Shown piece after piece: positions 1,659-22,180 of a stretch of DNA of 22,180 nt (positions are counted from its first letter, which is position 1; every line of letters begins with the position of its first letter). The DNA comes from Psammoneis japonica (lineage: Eukaryota). The notes under the pieces were generated by a model, which was not told the DNA's origin, made no database searches, and was given only the letters and a program-made list of their open reading frames with translations. The stretch is taken from contig QPGO01000261.1 of NCBI GenBank assembly GCA_008632985.1, forward strand, positions 62,001 through 84,180. The letters run 5' to 3'. Both the position numbers and the translations under genes were made by a program.

Positions 1659-2685
1659 ATGGGAAAAAAGACAGCTGATGCGAGTCTCAAGGGCAAAAAG
1701 CCCATTCATCGAGGCACTTCAAAGACTGCCATTACGTCCAATCCGGGTCGGATCGGGAACAAGCTGAAACGTTCGGAAATGTACGGAAAGTATCTCATGG
1801 AAAAGAAGCGTCAAAAGAACATGGCTCGTCGCCAACGCGCCAAGGAAGCCGAGGCACTCGGAGAAGAAGCTCCGGAAAAACCCACGCCGCGAACTCTTGA
1901 GAACACGCGAGAGTTGGAACCGACGTTGGTCAAACCACACGATGAAGAAGTTGCTGCCGACCAAGCCGAAAGATGAGTTTGCACCCTACTTTAACGATCA
2001 AGTACGGCCCAAAATCCTCATCACCACAAGACCACGTCCGTCGAAACAGCTCTTTTATTTTATTGCAGACTTGCAACGATTCTTTCCGCAAATGCATTTT
2101 TATCCTCGCAAATCTTTTACAGTCAAGGAAATTTGTGGCTTTGCGGCCAATCGCGGCTTTACCCATTTGATTGTGTTGAGTGAAAAGTCCAAGGTATGCA
2201 ACGGCATGACCATATCCCATTTACGTGTGCATGACGGACACGTGACGGCCGGTCCCACGGCCTTTTTCAAGGTGAGCAATGTCATTACGTCGACGGACGT
2301 TCCCAATCACGGTTCGGCCACTAGTCACATTCCCGAATTGGTCTTGAACGGATTTGGAACACGACTTGGACATCGTGTTGGGCGCTTTTTGGGAAGTTTG
2401 TTTCCGCACAATGCGCAGTTTCAGGGACGGCAGGTGGCAACCTTTCACAATCAGCGGGATTTTATTTTTGTGAGACATCATCGATATGTCTTTGAGCCTT
2501 CCAAGAATATTAGCAAAGAAACAAAGCAACCCAAGACCAAGGCGAGGTTGCAAGAATTGGGACCTCGATTTACTCTCAAGCTCCGGTGGATTCAGGAGGG
2601 TACGTTTGATACCATGTTTGGTGAATATGAATGGATTCACAAGCGCAAAGAGATGGACACGACGCGGAGAAAGTTTCACTTGTAA
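1659..2685 (+). CDS. RPF1: Ribosome production factor 1 (Brix domain), with one +1 frameshift
   Basis: ORF 1659-1976 (IGNKLKRSEMY..PRTLENTRE..DEEVAADQAE) joins ORF 1897-2685 (DEFAPYF..PKILITT..PTAFFKVSN..PELVLNGFGTRLGHRVGR..FHNQRDFIFVRHHRYVF..LQELGPRFTLKLRWIQEGTFD..RRKFHL). Removing one A from AAA at 1969-1971 gives ADQAEDEF. Confidence 0.95.
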
Positions 2686-4095
2686 GATTCTAGTGTTGAC
2701 GGTAACTCAGCTGATGATTGTTAATGATCTAGTCTTTGTTAGTTTTTTTAATGTAGTGCTGTAATGCTAAAGAATGTGGACACGAATTGGAAATGACCAC
2801 CAGTTGGATCGCTGTCGTATGTTCGAGATGCCGCCGCCGTCTTGCACCATTTCGTTAAGTCATACGAGACACTGTCTTCTGCCTCGTCTCGTGTCAAGGC
2901 TCGTTCTTGTCCACCAAAACAAAATGCTATGTGCGGCCCACCAATGCGATTCAGGATCTTGCATCATGCTTGTTCCTTCAACTCATTCAAGGAATTCAAC
3001 TTGTGCCCTCCAACCTTGCAGAATGCGGTCCTGCACACAGTTGGAGAGCACTTGTGCTTGACTTGATGGCAGTGGAGGAGATTCTCCGTTGATTGCCTCA
3101 CAGTCATGTCACAGCAAGATTCAAGGGTGGCTGCAGAGTTGCAAATGCTCTGGAGCAAGACACGATGGATTGTTGGGAGGATTGAAAATGTGTCTCGCCG
3201 TTGACAGACACTCAAATTGCAATTGTGGCCCAAAGACAAAAGTGAGAGTTGGGTGGCACTTGGCAAAACAAGCATTGGTGACAATTGTCAAGAGCACAAC
3301 AGTCATGTGGTGCTCCAACCCAAAAAGAGCTCACCTGGAAGGGTGCCACAAAAAAAGTGCAGGAAGGAGTGGAGGGGTGCATCATTTTGCTCTTGCAATG
3401 AAAAACAGAACAACAACAAAAGCAATTGTTCTTTCTGTTTTGCCCTTTCCTTGCTTCCAGGCTGCTGCTCTCATTGTGGCCCAAGCAAGAATGAGCTGCA
3501 GGCACCAAGGTTGCAGGGTTGGTGGGTGGCGGGCTGGTGCAGCTCGCGGCATGCTGCTTCACGCGCCATCAGCCATGCAGCAGGCTGCACAAAGGATGGA
3601 GAGATGATGATGGGCTCCAGCTCTCTGCAACACGCAAGAGGAGCCTCAAGGGTGCTCACAATGAAGCTGCAGTCTCTGGAGGTGAACACTCAAGTTGGCC
3701 AATTTGTGGGGGCTGTGCATCTGACACAGACATCCGAGATGGGGAGCACACCCCCTTTTGCAAGACAGACTGGCATGGACAGGGTGAAGAGATCCGATGA
3801 TCTCTCCTTTGCTCACTTTCTTTCTCCTCCAGTGCATGATTGCCATCTGTCCTAGATGTTGTTAGATTGTCCCAATGCCAGCAGTCTGCAAGGTCATGAG
3901 CAGCAGTGCGCTGTTTTTGTCTTCCTCAATGCAACCACATTTCAACACCCACTGTGTGGTTCGGCGGTGTTTCTCTGTTGAAATCATCGTCTTTGTCACA
4001 GCCTTTTTTCTTTCTTGATTTGTGATCATCACAACCACCATGGAACACAAACCAGTGCTCCATGCAGGATTTTGATTTTTTTTTCCTGAGCAACC

Positions 4096-6239
4096 ATGGT
4101 CAACAAGAACACAGCTGCCATCGATTTGACCAAGATCAAGCCAACATTGGTCAACCTCACACCGGAACATTGCTTGCCCGATGCCCATTGTTTTGCCTGA
4201 ATGAGCTTCACTCAGACAAGACACCTGCTCCTGAAGATCTTCTGGATGAGTTCACTCCTCCCAACCTCAAGAGCAGTGCTGTTGCAACTCTCTTTCACAA
4301 AGTTCTTCAGGAGGATCTCATCATCCCAAAAGCTGCACTGACCAAAGATCTTGCACAGATTGCAGTGCTTGTGGAGAAGGCTGCTCTCTTTGTGGCTGTC
4401 CCTCAAGGTTCTCCAATTCACCTGAACCACACCAATCTTCACAAGGCTGTGATCAAGGCAATCTCAGACAATCAGGACACCACGATGACCCATGTTGGGA
4501 TTGTCTGTCTCCATTTTTATGCTGCTTTTCAATCTTGTGAATGTTGGAATGATGTGTGTGATGCTCCATGCCCAGAACCTTCTGCTGCCCCAAGTTCATC
4601 ACCTTTGCCAGCTGCTGCTGCAGGTTTCACTCCTTGTGACTTTGCCAAGGCCTTGGCTGCTCTGCCTGGTCCAAAAGACTGTGAGAATGCCACAACCAAT
4701 GCACCAAAGAGCTCTTCATCCCCTTCCAAATCTTCTGCCACAACCCTCACCCCATCAAGTGTCCTTTGCACCTTCAACCCAAAAGGATTGCCCACAGATG
4801 CACCAGCGCATTGCCAACACAAAGAAGATGGAAAGGTGATTTTAGGAACTTCACTCACCCGCTGCAAGTCTGGAAACCTCTGCTGTGAAGATGGGCTGAA
4901 TGTCTCATGCTTGCTGGTGGCTCTCTTTTTGTTCATTGTGCTGGATGGGATGCAAAATCCTTCCTGCAGGATCCTCTTGCTTGCAATGACATTTCTCCTC
5001 AAGGAATTGTGCATTGCACACTGCTGCAACTCAACAAGCCACCATGGCATGTGGCACGTGCATGCATCCCCTCTGGTGTTTTATCAAGGATGGCAGCAAT
5101 TGGGGGTTTGCAAGTGGCAATGATCCCACTGATGACCTGCAGCTTCAAATGTGGGGCCCACTTGATCAGATGAAATGGACTGTCTTTCAGTGCATTCAGA
5201 AGGTTGGACTTTTTTCTGCTGACTCCACGTGCCCTGACATTGTTCACCAATGTTGTGGAGATGGACATGCCGCTCTCAAGATGATCCCATTTGATGTTCT
5301 TCCTGTTTGGACAAAGCTTCCATTCAACTCATCACAAGCCACCAGCACCAGAACAACCTTGCTGTTGTCAGCTGCCATGCTCTGTCCCAAGACTTCCTTC
5401 AACTTCAGGCAATCATCTCCAATGTTGATGCATCCCTTTATGATCCCAGTGAGCTTAATGTTTTTCTCAGCAATGCCTGTCATGTTGAACGTCTCCACTG
5501 CAAGACTGCTGAAGCCCATGAAGACAAGAACAAGAAGCGTCAGTTTGCCCAGCAGAAGATTGTTGAGACTGTTGCTGTGCTTCTCAAGGAACCGGATGGT
5601 CCTGCTCTCTGTGTGACTCCTCCCCAAGTGTCCACCACATTGCATGCACAATCAGACCCCTTGCCCACAAGTGAATCCTCCTTTGGTGGCACCCCTCTGC
5701 AGTCTTGATTTGCCAGCTGCTGATGATCCATCTGATCAGCTGACTGATGCTGAGAAACCCTCCATGGAGCTGTCTCCTCCTCCAGTGGAAGTGCCCCCTG
5801 AAACTGTGGAATTCTTTGTCAATGAACACTTGCTGCCATGGAGGTGCCCAGGATGATGAAGCACAGGTGCTGCATGGTGTGTTTCCAAGGCTTGTGTCTG
5901 TGGGCTCAAGGCTGCACCATCCCTTGCACAGAATTGTCCTTGCCTTGTTTGTGGTGGTGACCATTGCTTTGCTGATTGTCTGGTGCCAAACAATGCTGAG
6001 TGCTTGAAATCTCACCTCTCATCCAATTTAGCCAATTTCTTCAATGCAATCAGTGTGCTCAAGCCACATTGCTTGGGGCTGACAAAACCAAAGAGGATGG
6101 CTCTGCTCCCTTGGATTGTTCTTGGGGCCATTGTCACATTCAGATGTGCAATGCCACCCATCCACCACCAATCTGAAACCACCACATTGCCAGCAGGGCA
6201 ACTGTGAAAGAGAGTCCAACCGATTCATCACCTTCCGCT
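4096..6239 (+). mobile_element. Outer Ty1/copia element A, degenerate gag region (left of the nested insertion)
   Basis: A fragmented reading frame starts at ATG ~4096. It includes DIVHQCCGDGHAALKMI and ALSQDFLQLQAII..ELNVFLSNA, resembling diatom copia gag, and a zinc knuckle CLVCGGDHCFADC (CX2CX3HX4C) at 5941-5979. A tentative short LTR-like TGTTG...CAACA lies at 3857-3947. Confidence 0.7.
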
Positions 6240-6488
6240 TGAGCAAATTGTGATGCATCATGTGGAGTCTGGTGTGCTGTGTGCTGTTGCACATCAGACA
6301 TCAGCAACAGTTGTAGCTCAGTCAACTGTTGAGATGTGGTGTTGGAGCAAAACTTGATGGGTCATCCTTCAATGGTGCTCACTTGTTGCACACAGTCGCA
6401 ACAGGCCTTGGAGCATCTTTGGGATTGTTGTTTTGTTGTCATGCCACCACTGTGAGTGGCTGAGCCATCATGCAGCTGGATTTGCTTG
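6240..6488 (+). repeat. LTR 1 of element B
   Basis: Similar to 8980-9229 and 11716-11957. Starts TGAGCAAAT and is followed by a PBS-like motif. Confidence 0.9.
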
Positions 6489-6500
6489 CTTTGTCAGAGC
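6489..6500 (+). promoter_or_regulatory. Primer-binding-site-like motif (second copy at 9230-9241)
   Basis: CTTTGTCAGAGC lies directly after the LTR. It resembles the tRNA-Met PBS TGGTATCAGAGC with TA->TG, but the match is only partial. Confidence 0.55.
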
Positions 6501-6723
6501 CACAGTCCACACTCAAAGGTTTTTTGGTTGACACATGATGACAAGCATGAAAGTTGATGGTTGTGTCTTGATGGCACAGTTCCAATGACAACTGCCGACT
6601 GGCTTGAGGGTGCACACCAATGAGCATTGCCTGGCATCAGCGCATGTGCAAAGCAGTGTTTTGACATGATTCTTCTGACACAATGGCTGCTCTCTCTTGA
6701 TGTTTGATGACTCAGGTTTCACC

Positions 6724-7950
6724 ATGGTGGCTTTGCCTCCAAACCCAATGGAAACAGTCCTCAACTGTAACTGGATCAGTTTTCAGTTGCCTGCTCAGCG
6801 CAATGCTGTCATGACCAATGCTGCTGCATTTGATGGTGTCGTGGACATGAAAGAGTCCAACATTGATGTGCTTGCATTGTCCCACGCAAGGAGGACTGCC
6901 GCTGAAGGGCATTGTCACTTTGGATTGGCTTGAACCCATTGTCTCAAGTCCTCAATCCATTGGGTGCAGGATTTTGAATGTGCAAGCAAAAATCTGACCA
7001 TTGATGGTTTGGATCAGGTGAGGTTCCATGATGCACTGTCTGCCACTTTCACAAGGGCCAAGATTTGCAACCAGATGAGGGAGCAATCCAAGTCTGTTGC
7101 TTGTGAGGCATCTCTTGGACTCTTGGAGAGCAACAAAGGCTTGGGCAAAATGGAGTGCTGCCTTCAAGAACAAGCAAGCAGTGGATCAAGGAGCACCGCA
7201 ACAGCCAGAATGGTCATCTTTGCTGCAAGTCACTGGAGAACCACTGCAAGGGCAAGGGCAATGCTGCCTGTTGCATCTCGGAAGCTGAGCATCCAGAGAG
7301 TGCTCTCTGCAGCAGAAGTGAGCATTCCATGATGTTTGAGATGTTTGTCATCAAGCTTCAGGAGATGTTCAACATTTTTGAGGAAAATGACAAACCCAAG
7401 ATGGAGGCCCAGAAGCTGTGCTTGTCATTTGACAAGGTGCAGCACCAGCAACTGCAGAACACTGTGGAGACCCTGAAGGTGCAGAACAAGTTTGGAGGTG
7501 GGATCACTTTTGCCACTGCATGCAACCATCTTGCCACAAAAGTTGCTGCACTCTCAGAGACAGTTGCACACCATTGTGTGATTTCTTCTCTTGCGTCCGG
7601 AGTCAGCAAGGAAGGTGATTCCATTTGCAATGAAGATGGATCCATTGACACTGGATTTGACAAGAACTGGTGTCAATTTAGCAAGGAAGACAAGAAGAAG
7701 GTTGTGGACAAGTGCTTGTGCCTGGGACTCAAGAAGAAGCCAAGCAACCCAAAGCATCATGCTGCATCCGTCAAGTTGCTCAAGGAGAAGAATCGGAAGC
7801 TGTCATCCCAGCTTGAACAAGTGAACCACACTGTTTCTTCCCTCAGCACTGGCAACAGCACTGACACTGCTGCAGACAATGCTTTGGAAAGAGGCAGCAA
7901 AGGTGGCAACAATGCTGGAGATGTGTTTGGGGGACACCAGAACAAGTTGA
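6724..7950 (+). pseudogene. gag of element B, copy 1 (copy 2 at ~9463-10685)
   Basis: MVALPPNPMETVL..HFGLA*THCLKSSIHWVQDF..KQWIK..SLENHCKGKGNA..MFEMFVIKLQEMFNIFEE..ITFATACNHLA resembles diatom CoDi gag. It contains stops, frameshifts and internal deletions. Confidence 0.8.
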
Positions 7951-7957
7951 TTGCTGT

Positions 7958-8910
7958 GTGATTTTTGACATCAAGTTGGGAGAGAACTTTTGGCGCAAGA
8001 GCAGAATGGTGGTGGGTGGTCACATGACTGATGCCCCATCTGCTGTCACCTGCTCCTTGGTTGTTTCCAGGGATTTGGCAAGGATTGCTCTTGCTCTTGC
8101 TGCACTCAATGACTTGGAAGTGTTTTTGCCTGCGACATCCAGAACACCTGCTTGACAGTGTCATGCCAAGAAAAGACATGGACTCATGCTGGCGAGAGTT
8201 TGGTGGGGAGAGCAGCTCAATTGTGGTGGCATTCAGGGCTTTCTTGGTGGAGACGCTTTGTGATCCAGGGTGCAAGCCCAGTGAGGTGGACCCCAATGTT
8301 TGGATGCAACCCGCAGTGAAGCCAGATGGGTTTGAGCACTGCAAGTGCATCTGGTGCACATGGACAATTTGTTGTCAATCAGTCACAAGCCAATGAATGC
8401 CATGGATGGGGCATCAAGCTAAAATTCAAGCTCAAGGACAACAAGGTGGTGGAACCGCCCCGACTCCTGCTTGGGTGCTCAGTTGGCAAAAATGGACTTA
8501 GCTGACAGCACCACTTGCTGGATGATGTCAGCAGAGGCGCATTTTCAGGCAGCAGTTCAGAATGTTGAAGAGAAGTTGGCCAAGCAAGGGAAGAGATTGA
8601 TGATCAAAGCTTGCGCACCCCTGAGCAGTGGACACAAGCCGGAGCTGGACACTCTGGGTGAACCAGATGCAGAAGGTCTCAACTGCTGCCAAGAGATGAT
8701 TGGCATTTTGGTTTGGGCAGTGGAATTGGGTGGAGTTGATGTCCATCTGGAAGTCTCCATTGTGTCAGCTCACCTTGCCTTGCTGCGCATTGGTCATTTG
8801 GAACAGGCATTGCATGTCTTTGCACATCTCAAACAGGTTCCAAAGCATTGGGTGGCATTTGATCCTCCACATCCGGTCATTGTCAAGACCAGATTTCAGA
8901 AGTGCAATGT
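7958..8910 (+). pseudogene. Copia reverse transcriptase fragment of element B, copy 1
   Basis: IFDIKLGENFWRKSRMVVGGHMT..VVSRDLARIALALAALNDLEVF..AFRAFL..DPNVWMQPAVKPDGFEHCKCI-LVHMDN (YVDD site at 8357-8368)..HKPELD..CCQEMIGILVWAVELGGVDVHLEVS..GHLEQALHVFAHLK. Protease, integrase and RNase H are absent. Confidence 0.92.
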
Positions 8911-8979
8911 GACTTGTGCGCTGGTTGAATTGTGTCCATCAAGTGCATCCTTGACTTGTCAGAAACATTTCAAGAGGAC

Positions 8980-9229
8980 TGAGTAAATTGTGATGTGTCA
9001 TGTGGAGTCTGGTGTGCTGTTGCACATTGGACATCAGTCATTGATGGATGGAGCTCGCTCAGTCAACCATTGTGATGTGGTGTTGGAGGGAAACTTGATG
9101 GGTCATCCTCCAATGGCACTCACTTGTTGCGTGCAGTTGCAACAGGCCTTGGAGCATCTTTGGGATTGTTGTTTTGTTGTCATGCCACCACTTTGAGTGG
9201 CTGAGCCATCATGCAGCTGGATTTGCCTG
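8980..9229 (+). repeat. LTR 2 (central, shared, chimeric) of element B
   Basis: Preceded by the PPT-like CAAGAGGAC and followed by the PBS-like motif. Its 5' part matches LTR 3 and its 3' part matches LTR 1. Confidence 0.9.
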
Positions 9230-10692
9230 CTTTGTCAGAGCCACAGTCCACACTCAAAGGTTTTTGGTTGACACATGATGACAAGCATGAAAGTTGATGG
9301 TTGTGTCTTGATGGCATGTTCCAATGACAACTGCCGACTGGCCTGAGGGTGCACACCAATGAGCATTGCCTGGCATCAGTGCATGTGCAAAGCAGTGTTT
9401 CGACATGATTCTTCTGACACAATGGCTGCTCTCTCTTGATGTTTGATGACTCAGGTTTCACCATGGTGGCTTTGCCTCCAAACCCAATGGAAACAGTCCT
9501 CAACTGCAACTGGATCAGTTTTCAGTTGCCTGCTCAGCGCAATGCTGTCATGACCAATGCTGCTGCATTTGATGGTGTCGTGGACATGAAAGAGTCCAAC
9601 ATTGATGTGCTTGCATTGTCCCACACAAGGAGGACTGCCGCTGAAGGGCATTGTCACTTTGGATTAACTTGAACCCATTGTCTCAAGTCCTCAATCCATT
9701 GGGTGCAGGATTTTGAATGTGCAAGCAAAAATCTGACCATTGATGGTTTGGATCAGGTGAGGTTCCATGATGCACTGTCTGCCACTTTCACAAGGGCCAA
9801 GATTTGCAACCAGATGAGGGAGCAATCCAAGTCTGTTGCTTGTGAGGCATCTCTTGGACTCTTGGAGAGCAACAAAGGCTTGGGCAAAATGGAGTGCTGC
9901 CTTCAAGAACAAGCAAGCAGTGGATCAAGGAGCACCGCAACAGCCAGAACGGTCATCTTTGCTGCAAGTCACTGGAGAACCACTGCAAGGGCAAGGGCAA
10001 TGCTGCCTGTTGCATCTCGGAAGCTGAGCATCCAGAGAGTGCTCTCCACAGCAGAAGTGAGCGTTCCATGATGTTTGAGATGTTTGTCATCAAGCTTCAG
10101 GAGATGTTCAACATTTTTGAGGAAAATGACAAACCCAAGATGGAGGCCTAGAAGCTGTGCTTGTCATTTGACAAGGTGCAGCACCAGCAACTGCAGAACA
10201 CTGTGGAGACCCTGAAGGTGCAGAACAAGTTTGGAGGTGGGATCACTTTTGCCACTGCATGCAACCATCTTGCCACAAAAGTTGCTGCACTCTCAGAGAC
10301 AGTTGCACGCCATTGTGTGATTTCTTCTCTTGCATCCGGAGTCAGCAAGGAAGGTGATTCCATTTGCAATGAAGATGGATCCATTGACACTGGATTTGAC
10401 AAGAACTGGTGTCAATTTAGCAAGGAAGACAAGAAGAAGGTTGTGGACAAGTGCTTGTGCCTGGGACTCAAGAAGAAGCCAAGCAACCCAAAGCATCATG
10501 CTGCATCCGTCAAGTTGCTCAAGGAGAAGAATCGGAAGCTGTCATCCCAGCTTGAACAAGTGAACCACACTTTTCTTCCCTCAGCACTGGCAACAGCACT
10601 GACACTGCAGACAATGCTTTGGAAAGAGGCAGCAAAGGTGGCAACAATGCTGGAGATGTGTTTGGGGGACACCAGAACAAGTTGATTGCTGT

Positions 10693-11648
10693 GTGATTTT
10701 TGACATCAAGTTGGGAGAGAACTTTTGGCGCAAGAGCAGAATGGTGGTGGGTGGTCACATGACTGATGCCCCATCTGCTGTCACCTGCTCCTCAGTTGTT
10801 TCCAGGGATTTGGCAAGGATTGCTCTTGCTCTTGCTGCACTCAATGACTTGGAAGTGTTTGCCTGCGACATCCAGAACACCTGCTTGACAGCATCATGCC
10901 AAGAAAAGACATGGACTCATCCTGGTGAAGAGTTTGGTGGGGAGAGCAGTTCAATTGTGGTGGCATTCAGGGCTTTCTTGGTGGAGATGCTTTGCGATCC
11001 AGGGTGCAAGCCCAATGAGGTGGACCCCGATGTTTGGATGCAACCCGCAGTGAAGCCAGACGGGTTTGAGCACTGCAAGTGCATCTGGTGCACATGGACA
11101 ATTTGTTGTCAATCAGTCACAAGCCAATGAATGCCATGGATGGGGCATCAAGCTAAAATTCAAGCTCAAGGACAACAAGGTGGTGGAACCGCCCCGATTC
11201 CTGCTTGGGTGCTTGGTTGGCAAAAATGGACTTAGCTGACAGCACCATTTGCTGGATGATGTCAGCAGAGGCGCATTTTCAGGCAGCAGTTCAGAATGTT
11301 GAAGAGAAGTTGGCCAAACAAGGGGAGAGATTGCTGATCAAAGCCTGCACTCCCCTGAGCAGTGGACACAAGCCAGAGCTGGACACTCTGGGTGAACCAG
11401 ATGCAGAAGGTCTCAACTGCTGCCAAGAGATGATTGGCATTTTGGTTTGGGCAGTGGAGTTGGGTGGAGTTGATGTCCATCTGGAAGTCTCCATTGTGTC
11501 AGCTCACCTTGCCTTGCTGTGCATTGGTCATTTGGAACAGGCGTTGCATGTCTTTGCACATCTTGGGCAGGTTCCAAAGCATCGGGTGGCATTTGATCCT
11601 CCACACATCCGGTCATCGACAAGACCAGATTCCAGAAGTGCAATGTGA
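10693..11648 (+). pseudogene. Copia reverse transcriptase fragment of element B, copy 2
   Basis: Near-identical to 7958-8910. ACDIQNTCLTA corresponds to the copia DIxNAYL motif, and HMDN is at 11091-11102. Confidence 0.92.
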
Positions 11649-11715
11649 CTTGTGTGCTGGTTGAATTGTGTCCATCAAGTGCATCTTTGACTTGTCAGAA
11701 ACATTTCAAGAGGAC

Positions 11716-11957
11716 TGAGTAAATTGTGATGTGTCATGTGGAGTCTGGTGTGCTGTTGCACATTGGACATCAGTGATGGCTGGAGCTCAGTCAACCGTTG
11801 TGATGTGGTGTTGAAGGGAAACTTGATGGGTCATCCTCCAATGGCACTCACTTGTTGCAAGCAGTTGCAACAGGCCTCAGAGCATCTTTGGAAACATTGC
11901 GTCATCATCACACTGGCGCTGTGAGTGGCTGAGCCATCATGCAGCTGGATTTGCTCA
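11716..11957 (+). repeat. LTR 3 of element B
   Basis: Starts TGAGTAAAT after CAAGAGGAC, ends ATTTGCTCA, and is followed by the TSD CGCT. Confidence 0.9.
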
Positions 11958-11961
11958 CGCT

Positions 11962-14050
11962 GAACTGCCTCTTTCCCACGCATCATTTGCTGACATTCTT
12001 TTGGATTTGAAGAAGTCAAGCACTCCAAACATTGCAAAGATTCCTGATGATGACACTGACATTGTGAAACAGGGGAGGGATGACACTCACCTTGCTTCCA
12101 TTCAACATGATCCATCTCTCCCACTGTCCAATGACACCCACCAAGACTTTGAACATTTTGACATGTCCCAACATCAACACTTGTCTCCATTGAATGCTGC
12201 TTGCATCTCCCCCATCCTTTCTCTGCTAGATCCTCCTGCCCAGTTTCCAACTGTGGATGCTCTGGTTCTCCCCATCAACCACATGCTCAGTGATTCTGTG
12301 ACACATCATGCACAGATTGACATGGGTGCTTGGGTCTCATGTGCAGGGCACAAGAACCTTCTCCACGCTTGTGGACCTTTTGGTCCTGACAACCCATGTC
12401 CCTTGAAGATGTTGCTTGCAGTTGAAGGATCTGATGCAGTGCCTCATGGCTTTGGTTGCTTGCAAGCACCTGCAGACAATGCAGACAGCTTTCTCCTTGT
12501 GTGCACCTTTTGCCATCCAAGTCTGCATTCTACCTTGATCAATGAATGTGATTTTGGATGAGCTCCTGGTTTGCCAAAATTAGAAAACATTGCATCTGAA
12601 GTCATCCAGAAGACATGTGCTGACAGTGCTTGCATGTGTGCAGCAACAACTGCTGCCAATGCACCCCCAGCAGTTGCTCATGGTGTTCTCTGGCATGGCA
12701 AAGTTTCCACCCAAGCGTTGGTCCCTCCTTCCATGACACCCACACTCCCAACACCACTGGCATCTCTTTGTGATTCTGCCACTGATTTTGAAGATGCATG
12801 TCCTTCCATGACACCCACACTCCCAACACCCCCAGCATCTCTTTGTGATTCTGCCACTGATTTTGAAGATGCACGTCAGTGTGCAGCATTTTATGTTGAT
12901 GTTCAACAAGAATCTGGAACAGACCCCTTGGTCAACACTGAGCTCTTTTTGATGCAATGCCACTCTACACCATCACCCACACCAGCCCTCCATGTTTCAA
13001 CTCCTGTTTGGTCATTGAAGGTTGAGACTGAACATCTTCCATGGCACCAGCATCTTGGTCATCCAAGTGATCATCACTTGTGCAATGCTCACAAGTGCAT
13101 CAAAGGTGTCCCAAAGTTCCCCCATGAATGATCAGCTCTCAATGCTTGTCCAATGTGCATTCAAGCAAAACAGGCCTCTGAGAATGAGGATTGTGCATCT
13201 GACTGTCTTGGGTTTGATGGCGAAACTTGTTAGATGGCAGTGTGTGTGCACCATTCCTGCGCATTTCATGGTGCAGCACAGGTCTCAAAAAAGCCAGCCC
13301 TTTCAAGTGGCTTTGCCAATTCCTGGACTGACATTTGCCAAATTTTATGACAAACATGCATTTGTGGACCAAGGTGGAGAATTGCACAAGAGTTCAAAAG
13401 TTTGTGACCACTTCCAACACAAAATCTAGCATGACTTGTGTCCTGCAGGTGCTGGAACATCCAGTCAATGTGGACCTGTTGAATGCTCACATTTGACTGT
13501 TGAGAATGCAGTTCATGCATTTTTGATTGTTGCCAATCTTCCAATTTGATTTTGGCCCTGTGCTTTTTGTCACTGCCTGCAAATCAAGAGTGCTGCTCCC
13601 ACCAAAGATCAAGATGCAGCACCCATCACACTGTTGCCACTGGCAAGGTTGATGACTTCACTGCTCTGAAGACTTTTAGCTGCCAAGCATGGGCACTGCA
13701 ACCATCAGAATTGTCCAGCTCAATTCAAGACAAATTCCAAGAAAGGTGTCTTCCTTGGTCATCTCCCCAACACTTTGAAGAATGTCTCATGGTGAGATCC
13801 AGTGACTGACAAGGTCAAAACAGTGAAAAACGTCCACTTTGATGAGGGCATGAATGACTTGCCATCAGATCACCTCTGCCCAATGCTGCTCATTTGCAAT
13901 GCATGGAAAATGGCCAAGAATGTCTTCCAGCTGAAACCCAGGAGACCACGGTTCCCATGTTCACATCACCCTTGAATCCTTTTGCCAAGACTGTTGCATG
14001 TGCCATGAAATGCCCTCCAAAGGATCCCACCTGTGGTTTTGTGGTGAAAT
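11962..14050 (+). mobile_element. Outer copia element A, degenerate protease and integrase (truncated before RT)
   Basis: Protease HAQIDMGAWVSC (DTG->DMG at 12319-12327). GAG-pre-integrase WHQHLGHPS..GVPKF and CPMCIQAK. Integrase core AFVDQGGELH, SSQCGPVEC and FWPCAF. SH3-like LKTFSCQAW..KGVFLGH..VHFDEGMNDLP. Confidence 0.88.
12727..12873 (+). repeat. 75-bp in-frame tandem duplication (2 units)
   Basis: Units start at 12727 and 12802 and encode PSMTPTLPTP(L/P)ASLCDSATDFEDA. Confidence 0.95.
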
Positions 14051-14364
14051 GCAAACTGAGTCTGGTGTGAAATGGCGGAAGCTCAGCTCCCTGATGTGAA
14101 AGAAGCAATGCGGTCCACCAAGATCAAATGGTTGTGTGATCCCAGGCCAGTCATGAGCAAAAAGGTGCAGCACCCTGGTCTGCTGTCAGGCACAAGACAT
14201 GCCAGTCTGTGTGGAGCTCCAGGTGGCTCAGACTCAGGGGTGAGTCAGCCAGGTGGTGCAGTTGCTCTCCATGGGTGGGCTGGTGGCAGCACTCTGGCAT
14301 GCATGGAAGCAAGCTGCAAGCCATGCCCCATGGCAGCGCAAGGGCTGGCCAATGCCCAAATTGA

Positions 14365-15400
14365 TCAACGCACACATTGACTCACTCTTTGGCTGAAAAG
14401 GGGCCCAAAACACTGAGGTGGCTCCTGTTTTCCAATGAAGCAACAATGTCTTTCCTTCAACACATCCAGCTTTCTTAAATTTCCCATCTTCCAACTTGTT
14501 CCAACACACTCCTGCTGCTTGCACTGATGATGTTCTGCACCCTGACATTCTGGTTCTGCATTTCCTTGTGGGATGTCAACATTGTGCCCATCAGGTGCAT
14601 CAGTTGTTTTGATGCTTTCATCATGGCGACCATTTGGTTGACAAAAATGTGGACCAAGCTGACTGCCAAATGCACTCATGATCTTGCACACTTGATCCAC
14701 AAAATGCTTCATGTGATCAGCCACCAAGCCAAGTTTTCTCTTGCACAGCATCACTGTGCAGACCATTTGCTGTCATTAGCTCCATTGCCCAGCCATTGCT
14801 GACAACTCTGCTGCCCAATTCAAAGAACTCCAGATTGTGGCAAGTCCATTCTTTCTTGGGCCTTGCTTCAATGGTTTCATGTTTGAAGAATTGTGCCAAC
14901 TTTAAAGCATCACCGACAACTCCATTGTTGTCTTGCACTGACCCAAATTGAAACCTCTTCTTGTCCATGGGCCAATTGCTGGCATGTTCTGCAAGAGGTT
15001 CACATGTCTCAGCAATCCATGCCACATGTGGGACAACCTGATGTCAACATCCTGCCCACACAGAAGACATCATTTGTGGTCAATGCAAAATGAAATTTGT
15101 TGCAAAGACATCCTGCGATCATTGCCATGGCACATTCTGTCAGGTTGGCCTCATGGCAGAATCCTGGCTTGTGACATTCAAGTCTTTGGATGCAGGCTTG
15201 ACCTCCAATGAGCTGCCAACATTCCTTGGTTTTCTGTGCTGCTCTTGCATGGCCCTGAACTGTGGCCATTGTCTCCTCTCCATTGTCAAATGAGGAGATC
15301 ATCAGTGCAGCAGCCAGTGGGCAGGAATCCTGTGAGGCTTCCCACACTTGCCTTGGATGCTTGTGCAGCTGTGGGTTGCCTGCAAAGAGTCGACTGTGCA
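14365..15400 (-). pseudogene. Unknown protein family relic, copy B
   Basis: Paralogous to 15440-16690: AAQKTKECWQLIGG / MIAGCLCNKFHFAL / SGCPTCGMD / FQFGSVQDNNGVVGDALKLAQFFK..EARPKKEW..LEFFEL / VQAAGVCWNKLEDG. Confidence 0.6.
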
Positions 15401-15439
15401 ACCTTCAAACCAGTGACACAACAATGTGATGTGATGCAA

Positions 15440-16690
15440 TTGCACCCAATCAACAATCCTGATGTGCCAAATGATTCACACTCCAAAGAGTGAGAACAAC
15501 AAAACAGATGTGTGTCCAATTGGCAACAATGTTTTTCTTTGATGTCAACAAGTCACCACATCTTTTGGCATGGCAGAAGCTTCAATGTCTTTTCTTCAAC
15601 ATGTCGGGGTTTCTCAAGTCCCCATCTAACAACTTGTTCCAACACACTCTTGCTGCTTGCATCAATGATCTGGCATTTACATCTTGGCTTTGCAGCAACG
15701 TTTGGGATTAAAATTTCCCCAAACGATCCTTCCCATGTTGCGAGCACTTCAGTTCTATCAACATGGCAATTCAGCAATTCACACACCAGTGCTCCACACC
15801 TTTGTCATTGAAGTTAAGAAGCACATCGAACTCATTTGTCATGCATCCCACCACATCAACAAAGCTCTTCACATGGGCACCATGTGAGCCATCCTTGCAC
15901 TTCATGATTGTGCGGACCCATGTCACTGACAAAGCCTGTCATCCATTCATCAATTCTCCATGGATGCAGCTCACAGAATTCCATCTTGCAACAGCCCCAC
16001 CTTTGTCTGGGCCTCAGTTCAACCACTTTACACTGGAAAAATTGTGCCAGCATCAAAGTGTTGAAGACAACTCTGCTGTCATCTCTCACCAAACCAAACC
16101 GCCAATGTGTCTCATGGTCATGTTGGTTGGGTGCACACTCCATCAAGAGCTCACATGCCCCACATGCATCCATGCTGCAGGCAGGGCAGCTCACTGTTGA
16201 CCATTCACTGAGTTGGTTGATGTCTTCCTTGTCAAGGGCAAGTCTGAACTTGTTGCCCCTTGCTCCTGCCATCATGTTCTCATCAAACTTCTTCTGAGGA
16301 AACACACCATCATTGTCACAACAGCAAGTGCACACCCAATGCAAGGCTTTGCCTCCAACCATTTGCCAATGCTCCTTGGTCTTGTGTGCCTCTCTCACAC
16401 ACTCCACCATTTTGCACCACACCTGTGTTCCTTCTCCAAACATGGAGATCATTGGTGCAGTGGCAGACATGTGCTCACATGCATCTCTTGTCCTCTCCTT
16501 CCTGCAGCCATGTGTCTTGCACACTGTCTTAAATCTTTCTGTCCACAGCTCGTGCCACTTTGCTTCAAGCTCCTTTTTTCTCATCTGGCACTCCGGTGAA
16601 GTGATTCCATCCAAACTTTCTGTCCTCAGCAAATTCCAGCAACAACAACCTGAAATCTGCCAACTCCCATCAGACATGCAGGTCACCAGG
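15440..16690 (-). pseudogene. Unknown protein family relic, copy A
   Basis: EAHKTKEHWQMVGG / MMAGARGNKFRLAL / VSCPACSMD / WRFGLVRDDSRVVFNTLMLAQFFQ..ELRPRQRW..MEFCEL / MQAARVCWNKLLDG..CFVVLTLWS. Confidence 0.6.
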
Positions 16691-17103
16691 TGTTGTCATG
16701 CACATGCTTTCCACAAACAAGCTGTGATCTTCCAGTGCCTTCTGGCAGTCTTGATCTTGGCATTTCTTTTTTTTTGGCTTCCAGCAGTTTGCTCAACACC
16801 TCAAACTTTTCCAAATGCAGCCTCAGCCACTGTCATGAGAGTGCATTGTGCACCTCCTAGAAATCTTGCACTCTGCCTGGCTCATCAGGCAGCAAATTGG
16901 TGTCGTGAACAGCAGTTGACATCATGGTCATGGCCAAATCAACAATTGTGATTGGTTGAGCCATGTGGATGAACACAAAAACAAAACCAAAATTCCATCT
17001 TTAAAGTGCTGCTGCACTTCCACCCCGCAACTCCGGCAACAAGCTGGCCCACACCCCCAGCACACTGACAGTGCGGCAGGAGCATGTGGCAATTGGCCAA
17101 GAT

Positions 17104-17127
17104 CGGCATCGTCCGCAGACGATGCCG
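17104..17127. repeat. Perfect 10-bp inverted repeat (hairpin)
   Basis: CGGCATCGTC-CGCA-GACGATGCCG. Confidence 0.85.
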
Positions 17128-17253
17128 TGCCAAAGTGACATGTGAATGAACACATCTTCTGGACTCAACACATCATTGCAACTTCTGGGTTGCAGGGTTC
17201 TTTCACCCACACACATCAGCATTCTTGTGTCACAGACAGGAGAAACTCTCCTG

Positions 17254-17853
17254 TCACACTTGACAGCCCATGATGGCTTGTTTGAACTTTTGAAGCTTCT
17301 TGCCCTTCAATGGCTCAGTCATGAAGTCTTGAACCATGTCATTGGCAGGACATCACTCCACTCTGAGACTGCCTTTCTTGAGCTGGTTGGTTGCAAAAAA
17401 AAAGTTGACTGTTGAGTGCTCTTGACCTCTTGCATGCACTCTTGCGCCCGCCAGCTTCCAGAAACATGGTGCTCTGTTGAACTGCCTCACTTTCTTTTCC
17501 TTGTGGCAGCCTGACTTGTCTGCTGCTGGCACCACCATGTCAATGTTGTTCTCAATGTTAGCCTTTTTGCACTGAAGCTGTTGCAAGCCATGTCTTCAAT
17601 GGACCTTGCCAGATGTGTGCCTTGAGTGCACTCCTTCTGCATGCACCTCACACAATCTTTTCCTTGACATCTTCAAAGGTTGCATTCCAAGAATTGCTGC
17701 TCAGTGATGAAGGGCAAAACTTCATCTCAGATTGAAAGCCTTTCTTGGCAGTGGTCTTCTCCTTGCTTGAGAGGACCTGTGACTTTTGTCACCCTTTCTG
17801 CGACCACATCATTGGCCTTGGTTGTTGCTTCTGCTGCTTCTTCTTCTGCTCAT
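17254..17853 (-). mobile_element. Mini copia element C: gag N-terminus joined to RNase H C-terminus
   Basis: ATG at 17853 (MSRRRSSRSNNQGQ), then EMKFCP..ATFEDVKEKIV (gag-like start). After ~17480 it reads SAMFLEAGGRKSACKRSRALN..FFATNQLKKGSLRVE*CPANDMVQDFMTEPLKGKKLQKFKQAIMG, the copia RNase H end (KHIDIR/ADxxTKPL region). A 9-bp-stem hairpin at 17235-17255 overlaps the stop. Confidence 0.78.
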
Positions 17854-18079
17854 GTTGCAGGCCCTCTGTGATTTGTTAACTGCAGGTGGCAAAAAATTGA
17901 CAAGCACCAACACAGTTGTGATGTTGACTCTTTGGGGTGAATGTTGAACCAGCAAGTCAATGGCACCAAACCAGAATTCCACACGGCTTCCTGTGCTCTT
18001 GTTGTTCTTGCTTTGGCTGCTTGTGTGGCTGTGGGTTGCCTTCAAAGCCGTCTGTGCAAATTTCAAACTTGGAATGTAA

Positions 18080-18290
18080 CAGGTGCCCAAAGATGCCAAT
18101 GCAATGCAATCATGTTTTCTTGACAAACCAAATGAATTGCTCCAAAGATTGAGAACAACAAAACAGACAGAATCAGACCAGTGATGGTGCATTTTTCCTC
18201 TCAAAGAGTTGCAGCATCCACCATGCAAGGAGCAACAACATCTTTCCTTCCACTTGTTCCAACAAGACTTCACACAAATGTCATGTCAAC
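18080..18290 (-). pseudogene. Unknown protein family relic, C-terminal fragment (copy C)
   Basis: SCWNKWKERCC..CFVVLNLWS. The DNA CTCCAAAGA..GAGAACAACAAAACAGA is shared between 18140-18167 and 15481-15508. Confidence 0.55.
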
Positions 18291-19796
18291 ATCAACCTTT
18301 CTCTTTCTATGAACACATGGGAAGAGGAGTCATTGGTTTGCAAATTGCTGAAATGAAGCTCAAAACACATGAGGACACTCATGATTCAGGCAAAACAGCC
18401 TAAAACCCAAAAAACCAAGAGCAGGCGAGGGCTGTTGTATTTTCTGCTGTTGGTCAGATCTCATCACTTCCTTTTTGATCTAAAGGCCCTTCACACAAAG
18501 AGAAAATGGCCAGCTCATTGCTGCCACCTGGCACTGTTGCCATGATGAGCACTTGCAATGGCACAGATGTGCCGGAGGCCAGTGCTGCAGCTGCTGGGGA
18601 TCTGCCACTCTGACTGCAATGAAGAGCAAACTCACCACCACCAGAGATAATTTGCCCTTGTTGCTTTGCCACAGACCAGAGAGGACATGCCATTGTGGTG
18701 CACACAAAACATGTCCAAAATCACCTTTGCAAGTCTCCAGCCCACAAACTCACATGTGAGCCACCCTCAACTTGCCTCAACAATGCACCCATGCACAGCC
18801 ACAGAGCTGATTTGGTTGAACAAGCCCTTTGATGAAGATGCAATCACAGAAGTCATTGTTGCTCCACAGCAACAAGAGGTGACAAACAATCTGTCAGCCA
18901 CACTTTTCCCCTGCTGAGCAAAGAAAAGTGCAGGCATTCTTGGCTCACAGCCCAGAGAGTGTGCTGTCATTTTCTTTCATGTCAAATGTTGAGTCAGACA
19001 TCCAGTCCAAAGACCATTTCTTCTGGTGCATTTTCCATGGCATCACTTTTTCTGTCTTTTAAGCTGTGCCAATCCTTGTTGCCAGAGACCTTGGGAGTGA
19101 GATGGACTTGGATTCCTGCAACAAAATGATCAGCCTGCAGCATGAACCTTGCATTGCTGAGTGCTTTACATCCTGAGGCTGAGGACTTGTGGGAGGAGCA
19201 GGTTGGGAGCACATCATCTGTCCTGATGCAGCAAGTCAGTTGTGCTGGACATTGAGTTGTGCAAGGACAATGACATTGGGTGTGGCCAGATTGCAATAAA
19301 GTAGCAAGGACCATAATAGCAGAGAAGTATGGAATCGTTCTCTTCTTTTCAATTTATGGTGAATGTAAACAGTTCGTTGTGTTTGCGAGTTCGTCGAAAG
19401 GTTCTTCAATCAAAGTGTACCCACGGCAGTAGTTCCGAGCTTAGCGACTTTCTCTACATAGCTCTGGCGTTGCAAGGACCTGCGGAAAGTATAGTTCAAA
19501 GTTCCGTTGGCTCGTATACAAGCGCGATTTTTAAAAGTGGTATTCTGAAAGCTAATAAAAAAAGGTAGCCGTCCTGAATGCTGTGCCGAGAAGAAAGATG
19601 CTTTAGATACTGCCTCTAAAAGTTGAAATTAGAAAGGTTGAAGAGTCTTTCATTAGGCCATTCTCTCTTCACCCTCTAGTGTTGAGTTAAGCTCAAAAGC
19701 TAGCTCTAGACAGAGAGACAGAGGAGCAGGTGTCGATCGGTCGATCGATTACTTTAGCGTTGCTACGCATCCGCACTGCAGCGCCGGCGTAACAGG

Positions 19797-20218: not shown

Positions 20219-22180
20219 CTAACTAGAGATTCCGCTAGATCCAATATTTTGAGCATGAGCATATACTTCCAAACTTGGGGGAATGGGAGGAGTTGTTTCG
20301 TCCAGGCGATGCTCCTCGACGTATCGCACCAGCTCATCTTTCAATGATAATCCATCCCATTCTGGCTTGTCTCGATCACACTTGAGACGTTCAATGAGGT
20401 CTGGCCACAATCTTCCGACTAGATACCTTGCGGGATCATCTATCCGAGCCTCGAGGTAGATCATCCTCTTTAGAGCTGGAGCAAAGTCGTCGACTTTGTC
20501 TAGCTTCCAAAGATACGACAGTATCTTCAAGTTTTTCTGCTCCCGTCGCATCATAAAAGTGTTGAGCTCCATGACACAGTAGCGACTCTCTCGAAAGTTG
20601 GGTGACAATATAATCACGGCATGGGTACACGTATGCGCAGCTTCGAGTAGAGAACGCATCTGGTCTTCCCCAGTTTTCAAGCTTCCATCATCGATGAAGG
20701 TATTGACGCCCAATCTTTTCGTGAGAAGCCAATGCGTAGGACGAGCAATACTCTCTTTGGCATCGATACCGCAGTGCGACAAAAACACATACGGATCGCC
20801 GTCAGGGTCGACCGGCCATTCAAGGTTGGGATTCGTCAGCCCAGCCACTGATAACTCTCCCACAGATGTCTCGATACCATCCAACAGTGCTTGCGTGTGC
20901 AAGCTAGTGACGTTTCGTTCACCAGCTGTACTCGGCGAGACGTAGGTTTGCGAATGACCAGGTATATCTTGTGTCGGATAAAGGTGATTGAGGCGCTCCA
21001 TGATTTTGTCGAGCAACTCATCCTTCCGACCTTTCTTGCTATCATGGAAAGTTCCATCTCCAGCATGGAACACCCTTCCGACTTGAACAACTTCTTTGCA
21101 TACATCACACACGAGACAATCTGTTGTCCTCTCCTCAGCTACTTCAGACCAGTCGAATTCGTGGCACTCATCGACGGCTCTACCGAGCTCAATGCAGCGT
21201 GCACAAGCGAGTACACAGTCGAAATCCAAACCTGGAAAATGATCGTTTCGTTCCGCGATAACAAATTCGACGGCACCTTGTAACAACCTCCACATGCCCC
21301 TGTCAACGCGAGCACCACGAGCTGTGAATACTAACCATGCTTCTCCTTCCATCTCAACAATCTCCGACCGCAAGCGACGGTTGGTGTTCTCGTCGAGGAC
21401 AATCGCGCCATACAGCCATGCACATATGCATTTCCCATGCGCATGAGTCGCGGCGGCAAAATGTGCAGCGAGACTTGGGGGGCATCCTTCCCACATCTTA
21501 AGGCGTAGTTCTTGCTCCTGTTGGCCATCAGACACTAAATTTGGCCACGCCTTTTGCAACTCTTCCGCTTGTACTTTTTTTCGTTGTTGAAAGAGAACCA
21601 CGGGCTTGAGGCCACGCAAACTGTCATCAAGCGAAGATCCAAAAATTACGTCCGAATCCAGAAGCATCTGGAGGATCATTGGGAAGTCCTGGTGATGATT
21701 CACTAGGTCATTCCACAAGAAGGGAAGAATCACGGGATCCAACTCTCCCTTTTCTGCCAGCTTCTTGAGTCCCCCAACTATGAGATTCCGCAGTCCAGCT
21801 GGCGGTCTCATAACTCCTTTTACAAATATTCCAATACTTTTTTGGAAAGCCGGTGATTTTATTTTTTCCAGCGTCAACGTGTGGTCTATGAGAGGTTTGA
21901 TCAAGTCGGTTACAAAAGACGGTTCCAAATACGCCAACCCAGCATCAACAAAAGTACTGCCCTGGGCTTCAAGAAGTCCTAGTGCATCATTGAACGTAGT
22001 GTCCTCAGCCAAGGGGGCGTGCAAGAAACGGAATTGATTCCACAATGACTTGAGCCTCTCAACTGAACAATAAGGTCCTTTTGCAGATCTATCACTTTCG
22101 TCGCCGTCTGCAGTCGTCTTCATATTCCCAATCTCGCCCAATGGGATAGCATCATCGGAACTTGCTACAGAGAAAAGCGC
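20219..22180 (-). CDS. COR-TIR protein (3' part of a probable ROCO gene), 5' end outside the window
   Basis: The frame is open to the window edge (ALFSVASSDDAIPLGE...). COR-like segments: LLEAQGSTF..YLEPSFVTDLIKPLIDH..GELDPVILPFLW..CPPSLAAHF..AWLYGAIV..CVLACARC. TIR domain: YVFLSHCGIDAKESIARP..TFIDDGSLKTGE..AVIILSPNFRESRYCVMEL. Confidence 0.85.
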   Translation of the reverse strand, partial: ALFSVASSDDAIPLGEIGNMKTTADGDESDRSAKGPYCSVERLKSLWNQFRFLHAPLAEDTTFNDALGLLEAQGSTFVDAGLAYLEPSFVTDLIKPLIDHTLTLEKIKSPAFQKSIGIFVKGVMRPPAGLRNLIVGGLKKLAEKGELDPVILPFLWNDLVNHHQDFPMILQMLLDSDVIFGSSLDDSLRGLKPVVLFQQRKKVQAEELQKAWPNLVSDGQQEQELRLKMWEGCPPSLAAHFAAATHAHGKCICAWLYGAIVLDENTNRRLRSEIVEMEGEAWLVFTARGARVDRGMWRLLQGAVEFVIAERNDHFPGLDFDCVLACARCIELGRAVDECHEFDWSEVAEERTTDCLVCDVCKEVVQVGRVFHAGDGTFHDSKKGRKDELLDKIMERLNHLYPTQDIPGHSQTYVSPSTAGERNVTSLHTQALLDGIETSVGELSVAGLTNPNLEWPVDPDGDPYVFLSHCGIDAKESIARPTHWLLTKRLGVNTFIDDGSLKTGEDQMRSLLEAAHTCTHAVIILSPNFRESRYCVMELNTFMMRREQKNLKILSYLWKLDKVDDFAPALKRMIYLEARIDDPARYLVGRLWPDLIERLKCDRDKPEWDGLSLKDELVRYVEEHRLDETTPPIPPSLEVYAHAQNIGSSGISS

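Follow-up and report, generated by a model that had tools for sequence, protein, structure and literature searches.

Flanking-base bias among the surviving TA dinucleotides of a hypermutated block in a diatom genome

In the genome of Psammoneis japonica, a hypermutated block of 16.3 kb (2950..19290) has lost nearly all of its TA and CG dinucleotides, has its CA and TG doubled, and meets the ordinary genes around it at sharp edges. It lies in a stretch of 22,180 nucleotides (assembly GCA_008632985.1, contig QPGO01000261.1, positions 62,001 to 84,180 of the forward strand), which was analyzed as a whole and is called the window below. The locus raises the question of what decided which of its TAs were lost and which remained. 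A first-pass annotation, made from the letters of the window, had noticed that the remaining TAs mostly have a pyrimidine (Y) before and a purine (R) after them, YTAR, and are almost never RTAY; it proposed a strand-wise target of the form TAY or RTA, which RTAY presents on both strands and YTAR on neither. The explanation considered probable here, taken as a whole, is that the block is dead, transposon-derived DNA of the diatom, altered by a process of TA-specific transitions that takes account of the bases on both sides of the TA, with CG eroded by a separate process.

Surviving TAs and their neighbours within the block

Per kilobase between 3001 and 19000, the observed/expected (o/e) ratio of TA is 0.02-0.08 and that of CG 0.05-0.26, with CA at 1.56-2.06 and TG at 1.68-2.19, whereas segments lying fully outside the block have TA at 0.37-0.72 and CG at 0.85-1.12. 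Ordinary TA ends at 2928, the TAs of the block span 3853-19167 and the next normal TA is at 19297; the limits were placed at 2950 and 19290, within the TA-free gaps 2928-3853 and 19167-19297. AA is not depleted (o/e 0.94-1.37 in the block, in line with 0.89-1.49 outside), as had been judged by eye. A product estimate for each 3' base, taken from composition, finds TGC enriched and TGT not, an observation from which no reading is drawn.

An exact count over the block gives 51 surviving TA dinucleotides (3853..19168), of which 32 are YTAR, 18 mixed and one RTAY, the same numbers as the first tally by hand. The YTAR class consists of TTAG (12), TTAA (10), CTAG (5) and CTAA (5), and the mixed class of 12 YTAY (TTAT 5, TTAC 3, CTAC 2, CTAT 2) and six RTAR (GTAA 4, GTAG 1, ATAA 1); the full listing holds a single RTAY, a GTAT at 18437..18440 with its TA at 18438. 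Overall survival in the window is 6-12%, with 51 TAs left where roughly 600 are expected from the density in the flanks. The window flanks (5,839 nt, 216 TAs) contain YTAR, mixed and RTAY sites at 47:104:65, from which the block differs clearly (chi-square 38.1, p = 5.3e-9). A null independent of the flanks comes from every pyrimidine-purine step within the block, each assigned to its flank class. This skeleton, which transitions leave unchanged, stands at 996:2022:932 (25:51:24%), close to the 1:2:1 that had been assumed for a process without preference, and the observed 32:18:1 departs from it with chi-square 41.1 and p = 1.2e-9. Read on both strands, surviving TAs are followed by A in 50 cases, G in 32, C in 11 and T in 9, against A 103, G 95, C 113 and T 121 in the flanks. 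The sample is small and skewed, with only 51 sites, four of them tandem duplicates (10418, 11154, 11233 and 11720), so that chance or base composition might be thought to suffice. However, removal of the duplicates leaves 29:17:1 and p = 1.5e-8 against the skeleton, and the same bias is seen again in two further lineages of elements, which leaves this explanation with hardly any credibility. The 130 surviving CGs are unbiased in their neighbours (RCGY 39, YCGR 33, mixed 58), and the flank bias is therefore specific to the TA process.

Fate of ancestral TAs in related Copia elements

Inside the block lies the relic of a Copia-type retrotransposon, and the comparison of mutated and surviving TAs with intact copies, which had been suggested as a check on the flank rule, was made on a related Copia family. 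An alignment of ten Copia polyproteins led to 79 loci in metagenome contigs, 32 of which form one family at 75-90% nucleotide identity, with 20 intact copies (TA o/e at least 0.55) and 12 TA-depleted copies (0.08-0.49, CG close to normal). A TA was taken as ancestral when it is present in at least 60% of three or more aligned intact copies and the flank classes agree. This yields 1,089 ancestral sites in the 12 depleted copies, with the present state limited to TA, TG or CA: TA remains at 373 of them, TG has replaced it at 391 and CA at 325. Survival depends steeply on the neighbours, being 13% at RTAY (39/299), 36% at RTAR (43/119), 38% at YTAY (201/527) and 62.5% at YTAR (90/144), with Fisher p = 5e-26 between RTAY and YTAR; copy by copy, RTAY survival is the lower in 11 of 12 and tied in one. 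The order RTAY, mixed, YTAR is the one predicted for a target that RTAY carries twice and YTAR never. At the level of single tetranucleotides, ATAC and GTAC survive at 8%, ATAT, GTAT and TTAC at 16-21%, and TTAA, TTAG, CTAG and CTAA at 53-69%.

The products of these sites also speak to the choice between TAY and RTA, which the first-pass annotation had left open: the changed A is mainly one standing before a pyrimidine, with a weaker effect of a purine at the second position on its 5' side. At mixed sites, 263 changes fell on the A that precedes a pyrimidine and 139 on the A of the other strand (p = 6e-10). In a competing-risk model that assigns each copy its own dose, fitted by maximum likelihood and bootstrapped over loci, a pyrimidine at +1 raises the rate at which the A changes by a factor beta of 3.35 (bootstrap 2.80-4.18), and a purine at -2 by a factor alpha of 1.79 (1.60-2.06). 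Neither term can be dropped, as the negative log-likelihood falls from 1138.1 with no flank term to 1066.3 with beta only and 1045.1 with both. Expressed as the fraction of half-sites edited, the +1 base ranks as C 0.42, T 0.40, G 0.22 and A 0.20. When +1 and +2 are taken together, TACG is the most edited context, with 64/117 against 213/535 in other TAC (odds ratio 1.8, p = 0.004, uncorrected for 16 contexts).

The gradient is alike in coding DNA (survival of RTAY, mixed and YTAR 13, 39 and 58%) and in non-coding DNA (14, 35 and 73%). Moreover, it concerns TA and not A in general: in depleted copies, A>G amounts to 31.7% after T and to 4.5-7.9% after A, C or G, against 5.5% and 2.1-4.8% in intact ones, so that A>G after A stays at background level, as expected if AA is not a target. 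CG is kept at 68% in depleted copies and at 79% in intact controls.

Either strand appears to be changed without regard to the other. Symmetric RTAY sites became TG in 132 cases and CA in 128, and neighbouring mutated sites show a same-strand change in 346 of 704 pairs where 355 are expected, kept and lost sites not being clustered. Strand-biased editing had been considered for the blocks of GC skew seen in the window, and was dropped in view of the 132:128 in the relatives. The depleted loci (L029, L020, L009 and nine others) are without strand-coordinated runs of products, unlike what is found with APOBEC-type clustered editing of single-stranded DNA or with a transcription-coupled process. 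Shared ancestry or further context effects may inflate the p-values of these comparisons, which are best taken as orders of magnitude; the bootstrap over loci is a partial answer.

TA loss is graded among the 12 depleted copies, with o/e from 0.08 to 0.49 and fitted doses from 0.07 to 0.65, and L004, classed as intact, has lost 12 of 43 RTAY sites and one of 25 YTAR sites. The family of 32 loci (L003-L049) is thus a ready dose series for the study of the TA process. Eight flank frames of L007 and L036, examined with a view to the host of this metagenome Copia family, matched no Pfam family.

A second, distant Copia element (L052) has the same bias: its TA-poor part contains 22:41:4 YTAR, mixed and RTAY sites where the skeleton has 224:503:241 (p = 0.001); the figures for its normal part are 25:91:46. 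Along L052, a CG-poor stretch (3001-5000, CG 0.06-0.23, TA 0.35-0.57) adjoins a TA-poor stretch (5001-9000, TA 0.13-0.45, CG 0.58-1.07). CG erosion looks like a second process, separate from TA loss, because the flanks of the surviving CGs are unbiased, CG is near normal in the related depleted copies, CG was lost from another stretch than TA in L052, and CG decay was still active in the block after a tandem duplication.

Contents of the block and the origin of its TAs

This duplication involves a unit of 2.74 kb, with copy A at 6240..8979 and copy B at 8980..11715, both on the forward strand and 95.7% identical, followed on the same strand by a partial copy C of 240 nt (11716..11955) that is 81% identical to the start of copy A. 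Copies A and B differ at 79 of 2,838 aligned bases, and 66 of these mismatches are transitions. CG stands against TG or CA in 21 of the differences, eight are clean CA-versus-TG doubles and about four touch a TA; TA loss was thus near complete before the duplication, and CG decay continued after it. Three YTAR TAs are present in both copies (7679/10418, 8420/11154 and 8499/11233). At two places GTAA is set against GCAA, and the direction, read without an outgroup, fits a change of the A that is followed by a pyrimidine. A self-comparison of the window returned the tandem unit and three short diverged matches as the only internal paralogues.

The Copia-type relic (12160..14050, forward strand) retains parts of Gag, protease and integrase, is missing its reverse transcriptase, and is frameshifted with many changes of Tyr to Cys or His. 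Its nearest proteins are full-length Copia polyproteins: 25 relatives were found, the best at 43-45% identity, and tblastn covers residues about 78-700 of about 1,430. Two 75-nt tandem copies that are 95% identical lie at 12726-12875 within its Gag part. In the zinc-finger region of the integrase, an invariant Y-L-Y has become H-L-C (window 13075-13083). Such replacement of conserved Tyr by Cys or His runs across the relic, with the result that Pfam barely recognises hypermutated elements. Among 15 frames searched against Pfam, the 11 long frames inside the block matched no family, and the four matches (TIR_2/TIR, Brix, LRR) were all in flank frames; read-through frames 12000-15502 (forward) and 14000-19293 (reverse) had no match except a weak SH3_retrovirus, in the relic.

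These contents bear on the idea that YTAR sites were retained by selection as functional motifs, such as stop codons, target sites or regulatory words. TAA or TAG does occur within YTAR on both strands, and TTAA is a known transposon target site. However, the block contains no intact gene, the frames searched gave no Pfam family bar the one weak match of the relic, and the relic is itself interrupted by in-frame stops at two of the YTAR TAs. In the related elements, survival is graded over all 16 tetranucleotides without being tied to single words, and the gradient is alike in coding and non-coding DNA. Selection on YTAR motifs is accordingly regarded as highly improbable.

Some of the TAs in the block are new. 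Within the relic, an in-frame TAG at 13231..13233 (forward strand) stands where 13 of 15 homologues have Trp, and another at 13427..13429 (forward strand) where 13 of 19 have Gly. Between the tandem copies, 9665..9666 is probably new (TTAA where copy A has TTGG, polarity being inferred without an outgroup), as is 10149..10150 (CTAG where copy A has CCAG, with C in all seven contigs aligned there). An old TA is kept in a TAT codon at 12892..12894 (forward strand, context TTAT), where Tyr is found in 8 of 15 homologues. At least 4 of the 51 TAs are therefore new, and all four are YTAR, which has a chance of 0.004 under the skeleton; the remaining TAs are thus not plain survivors. This would suit a different explanation, in which the present TAs are mostly recent, C>T favours Y-CA-R, and the mutator itself follows no flank rule. 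Several results stand against it. At CA or TG sites of the Copia family, new TAs occur in intact copies at 13 YTAR, 40 mixed and 23 RTAY, without an excess of YTAR, and in depleted copies at 51:94:15, so that creation is unbiased and destruction selective. The precursor CA and TG of the block are evenly spread over the flank classes, and among the remaining 14 transitions that separate copy A from copy B the 5' neighbour is, by manual tally, a pyrimidine in eight and a purine in six, without a pyrimidine bias. Above all, the loss of TAs known to be ancestral is itself steeply graded, with 13% kept at one end and 62.5% at the other. A creation bias without a flank rule is thus considered very unlikely, and the earlier concern that the survivors could be mainly newly created TAs holds for part of them, while the flank effect stays and ancestral sites show the gradient.

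Other sequences point to the repetitive nature of the block. One public run contains this DNA, and 878 of its contigs aligned to 9300-19290 at 80% likeness, 427 of them being less than 90% alike. Almost none of the 40 places listed, out of 816 that differ, gives back a TA, since the paralogues are themselves mutated. The interval 16982-17315, a high-copy short repeat, stands out by a summed contig depth of 5,295, where other parts have 120-1,200, and a single place in it is covered by as many as 55 contigs.

The RPF1, LRR and TIR frames on either side of the block have a normal composition. On the left, the gene of ribosome production factor 1 (RPF1, 1897..2685, forward strand; Brix domain, 3.8e-28) is unmutated and serves as a normal comparator. 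All organisms named among its 120 listed relatives are diatoms, six rows carrying a name (Ditylum, Thalassiosira oceanica, Eucampia, Chaetoceros tenuissimus, Fistulifera solaris and Aulacoseira); the window is eukaryotic and its host is a diatom. Further left, a frame on the reverse strand (470-1090) contains LRR_6 repeats encoded by an 84-nt tandem repeat at 623-958, with 80-82% identity between copies. On the right, an unmutated open frame on the reverse strand (20219..22180) has a TIR domain (TIR_2, 9.6e-11). The block is thus flanked on both sides by genes with immune-receptor-like domain types, the LRR_6 frame and the TIR frame.

Proposed mechanism, known systems and meaning

The results are best brought together in a mechanism in which TA is turned into TG or CA by TA-specific transitions and CG is eroded separately. 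An A, or the T paired with it, would change about 3.4 times faster with a pyrimidine 3' of the A and about 1.8 times faster with a purine two bases 5' of it, the base pair beside the changed A:T thus weighing about twice as much as that on the other side. The palindrome R-T-A-Y would be the best context on both strands and be lost first, and Y-T-A-R would be the worst on both and live longest. Either strand would be hit independently, during long action on silenced repeat DNA, and the process would be still active, or long-lasting, at steady state. Ordinary C>T on the abundant CA and TG would go on making new TAs, among which those in YTAR alone would persist, and the 32:18:1 of the block would be made of old survivors and filtered newcomers. 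The rule calibrated on the copies of other organisms presumably operates in this genome as well: with the fitted rates, the model predicts 35-44 YTAR, 7-16 mixed and 0-0.3 RTAY among 51 TAs.

Several observations weigh against this explanation. The mixed and RTAY sites of the window add up to 19, above the 7-16 of the model, a small excess that fits an admixture of young TAs or an uneven dose along the block. The rates were calibrated on metagenome contigs whose host is not established and which have no nucleotide similarity to the relic of the window, and within the window few events are polarised. Among 13 relic columns with Tyr in at least half of the aligned homologues, two are uninformative; after a pyrimidine the codon is now TGY in four, CAY in one and a kept TAT in one, and after a purine it is CAY in three, TGC in one and TGA in one, a direction as expected but not significant alone (Fisher p = 0.21). 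Similarly, the products of mixed sites in the block lean as the rule predicts, with 1100 YTGY and RCAR against 846 YCAY and RTGR (binomial p = 9e-9), but the lean is not significant against the small flank sample of 219 and 203 (Fisher p = 0.084). CG decay is not its cause, since the 21 places where one tandem copy has lost a CG show the opposite lean (5' neighbour R in 15 and Y in 6, by manual tally). At sites shared among depleted copies, the products agree in a fraction of about 0.5-0.75, against roughly 0.52-0.55 estimated for independent hits, although this is well under the 1.0 expected if the changes had been inherited. Finally, no count made here reveals an enzyme, inosine or the base that is chemically attacked.

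This last point leaves a place for the same flank rule with another chemistry, in which the T of R-T-A is attacked, for instance by an enzyme that modifies thymine so that it is afterwards paired as C, rather than the A of T-A-Y. An A before Y is a T after R on the opposite strand, within the same base pair, so that all counts fit equally and none speaks against it. No enzyme is known to us that converts T to a base resembling C. Adenine deamination in DNA has a precedent in the ADAT2 of amphioxus (PMC10354150) and is the hypothesis put forward in a preprint on the alga Bigelowiella natans (Mettrop et al., bioRxiv 10.64898/2026.01.13.699255), and attack on T is considered unlikely. By analogy with B. 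natans, the TA-specific process may work through an enzyme that deaminates A in DNA. In physical terms, stacking between two pyrimidines might let an A flip out more easily than stacking on a purine.

The system in B. natans, a chlorarachniophyte, is a TpA-specific hypermutation of integrated viral or transposon-like DNA, for which the preprint proposes an ADAT2-like A-deaminase as cause (10.64898/2026.01.13.699255). As described there, the changes are almost only A>G and T>C at TpA, giving TpG and CpA, in foreign or repeat DNA with sharp limits, with a long-term depletion of TpA and a gain of CpA and TpG. The locally raised mutation rate was measured there directly, in mutation-accumulation lines. 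The window is similar in that conserved Tyr codons are now TGY or CAY, and in that the changes are confined to repeats (the Copia relic, the tandem unit and multi-copy repeats) with sharp borders. It differs in that the changes reach beyond TpA, the CG of the window being at 0.05-0.26, and in degree, as the TpA Rho of 0.45 reported for the viral region contrasts with the near-total loss (0.02-0.08) in the diatom, with CG erased as well. The main text of the preprint states no flank rule with RTAY above mixed above YTAR; its Table S2, with 231 mutations, could contain it.

The first-pass annotation had also pointed to TadA. The bacterial enzyme acts on A34 of tRNA-Arg and edits mRNA at the motif UACG, extended to YTACGAA, and its editing is lost when T takes the place of C at +1 (PMC12255301). 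The likeness holds for T at -1 and for C at +1, which gives the best single contexts here (ATAC and GTAC, surviving at 8%), TACG being the most edited. However, C at +1 is required by TadA and here T is about as good (0.40 against 0.42), TadA has Y at -2 where R is favoured here, and G at +2, which TadA requires, is a mild plus here (p = 0.004, uncorrected). Moreover, the TadA substrate is the loop of an RNA hairpin, and here it is chromosomal DNA. Among the systems compared, the natural site of TadA is the one that the flank rule most resembles, and yet three of five defining features fail. The analogy with TadA is a loose one.

In fungi, A-to-I editing of mRNA in the sexual stage is attributed to Tad2/Tad3 (ADAT2/3) (PMC4817773, PMC11087585, PMC11156358). 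In Fusarium graminearum, 85.7% of the edited sites have U/T at -1, and the +1 base is A in 39%, about as often as G (37%), followed by U (17%) and C (7%) (PMC4817773). The strong demand for U/T at -1 and the proposal of an ADAT-family enzyme are shared with the process described here, but UAG and UAA are favoured there and TAA and TAG are spared here, and RNA rather than DNA is edited. For metazoan ADARs, U is the best 5' neighbour, and the 3' neighbour ranks as G > C ~ A > U or G > C > U ~ A (quoted in PMC4817773). They are alike in this 5' neighbour, in the A>G outcome and in a possible hyper-editing of repeats. In contrast, G is preferred on the 3' side by ADARs and is among the poorest at +1 here (0.22), A at -1 is edited by ADARs and AA is untouched here, and the ADAR substrate is double-stranded RNA, whereas here RTAY changes equally on both strands without strand-coordinated runs.

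Amphioxus ADAT2, an enzyme of the CDA fold, deaminates both A and C in DNA, in the contexts GAA and TCG (PMC10354150). One such enzyme for A and C could in principle link the losses of TA and CG. The contexts described for it do not include TA, however, and the CG loss seen here has no T-C-G preference and is separable from TA loss. Of another kind is the repeat-induced point mutation (RIP) of Neurospora and other fungi, in which C>T occurs mainly at CpA, so that TpA is created; here TpA is destroyed, and CpA and TpG accumulate. RIP is nonetheless comparable as a mutational genome defence that places transitions in repeats and spares genes (abstract of PMC7296669).

Full-text searches of the literature found no paper on TpA hypermutation in diatoms (PMC9258296 concerns antibody hypermutation). 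TA-directed hypermutation of invading DNA has so far been described once, in 2026 and in one alga, without a known enzyme, so that the process itself is already known from that preprint. What is added here is another algal lineage, a measured neighbour rule, and a separable erosion of CG. The window, whose host is a diatom, and the related metagenome elements bear the marks of the same process, and in both its neighbour rule can be measured.

Altogether, the process reads neighbouring letters, which narrows the kinds of candidate enzymes. The flank rule is the first constraint on the enzyme, and the pyrimidine at +1 argues against ADAR-like and fungal-ADAT-like readers. From the rule it is predicted that the 231 de novo mutations of B. 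natans would be enriched about threefold at TAY. In genomes with such a process, transposon ages estimated from divergence and dinucleotide screens for foreign DNA would be distorted in a context-dependent manner. Diatoms are among the most important phytoplankton groups, and a further, tentative step, toward which we lean less than away from it, is that they carry a dedicated genome-defence mutator for the palindrome R-T-A-Y in silenced chromosomal DNA. This mutator would read both flanking pairs and hit the strands independently, without transcription-strand bias and with preferences unlike those of ADAR, eukaryotic ADAT2/3 and bacterial TadA; it would amount to a new DNA-editing specificity, possibly of a new enzyme family or of a much altered ADAT2 paralogue. 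If this is true, the flank rule would be a fingerprint for finding the R-T-A-Y mutator and for tracing the system across algae.

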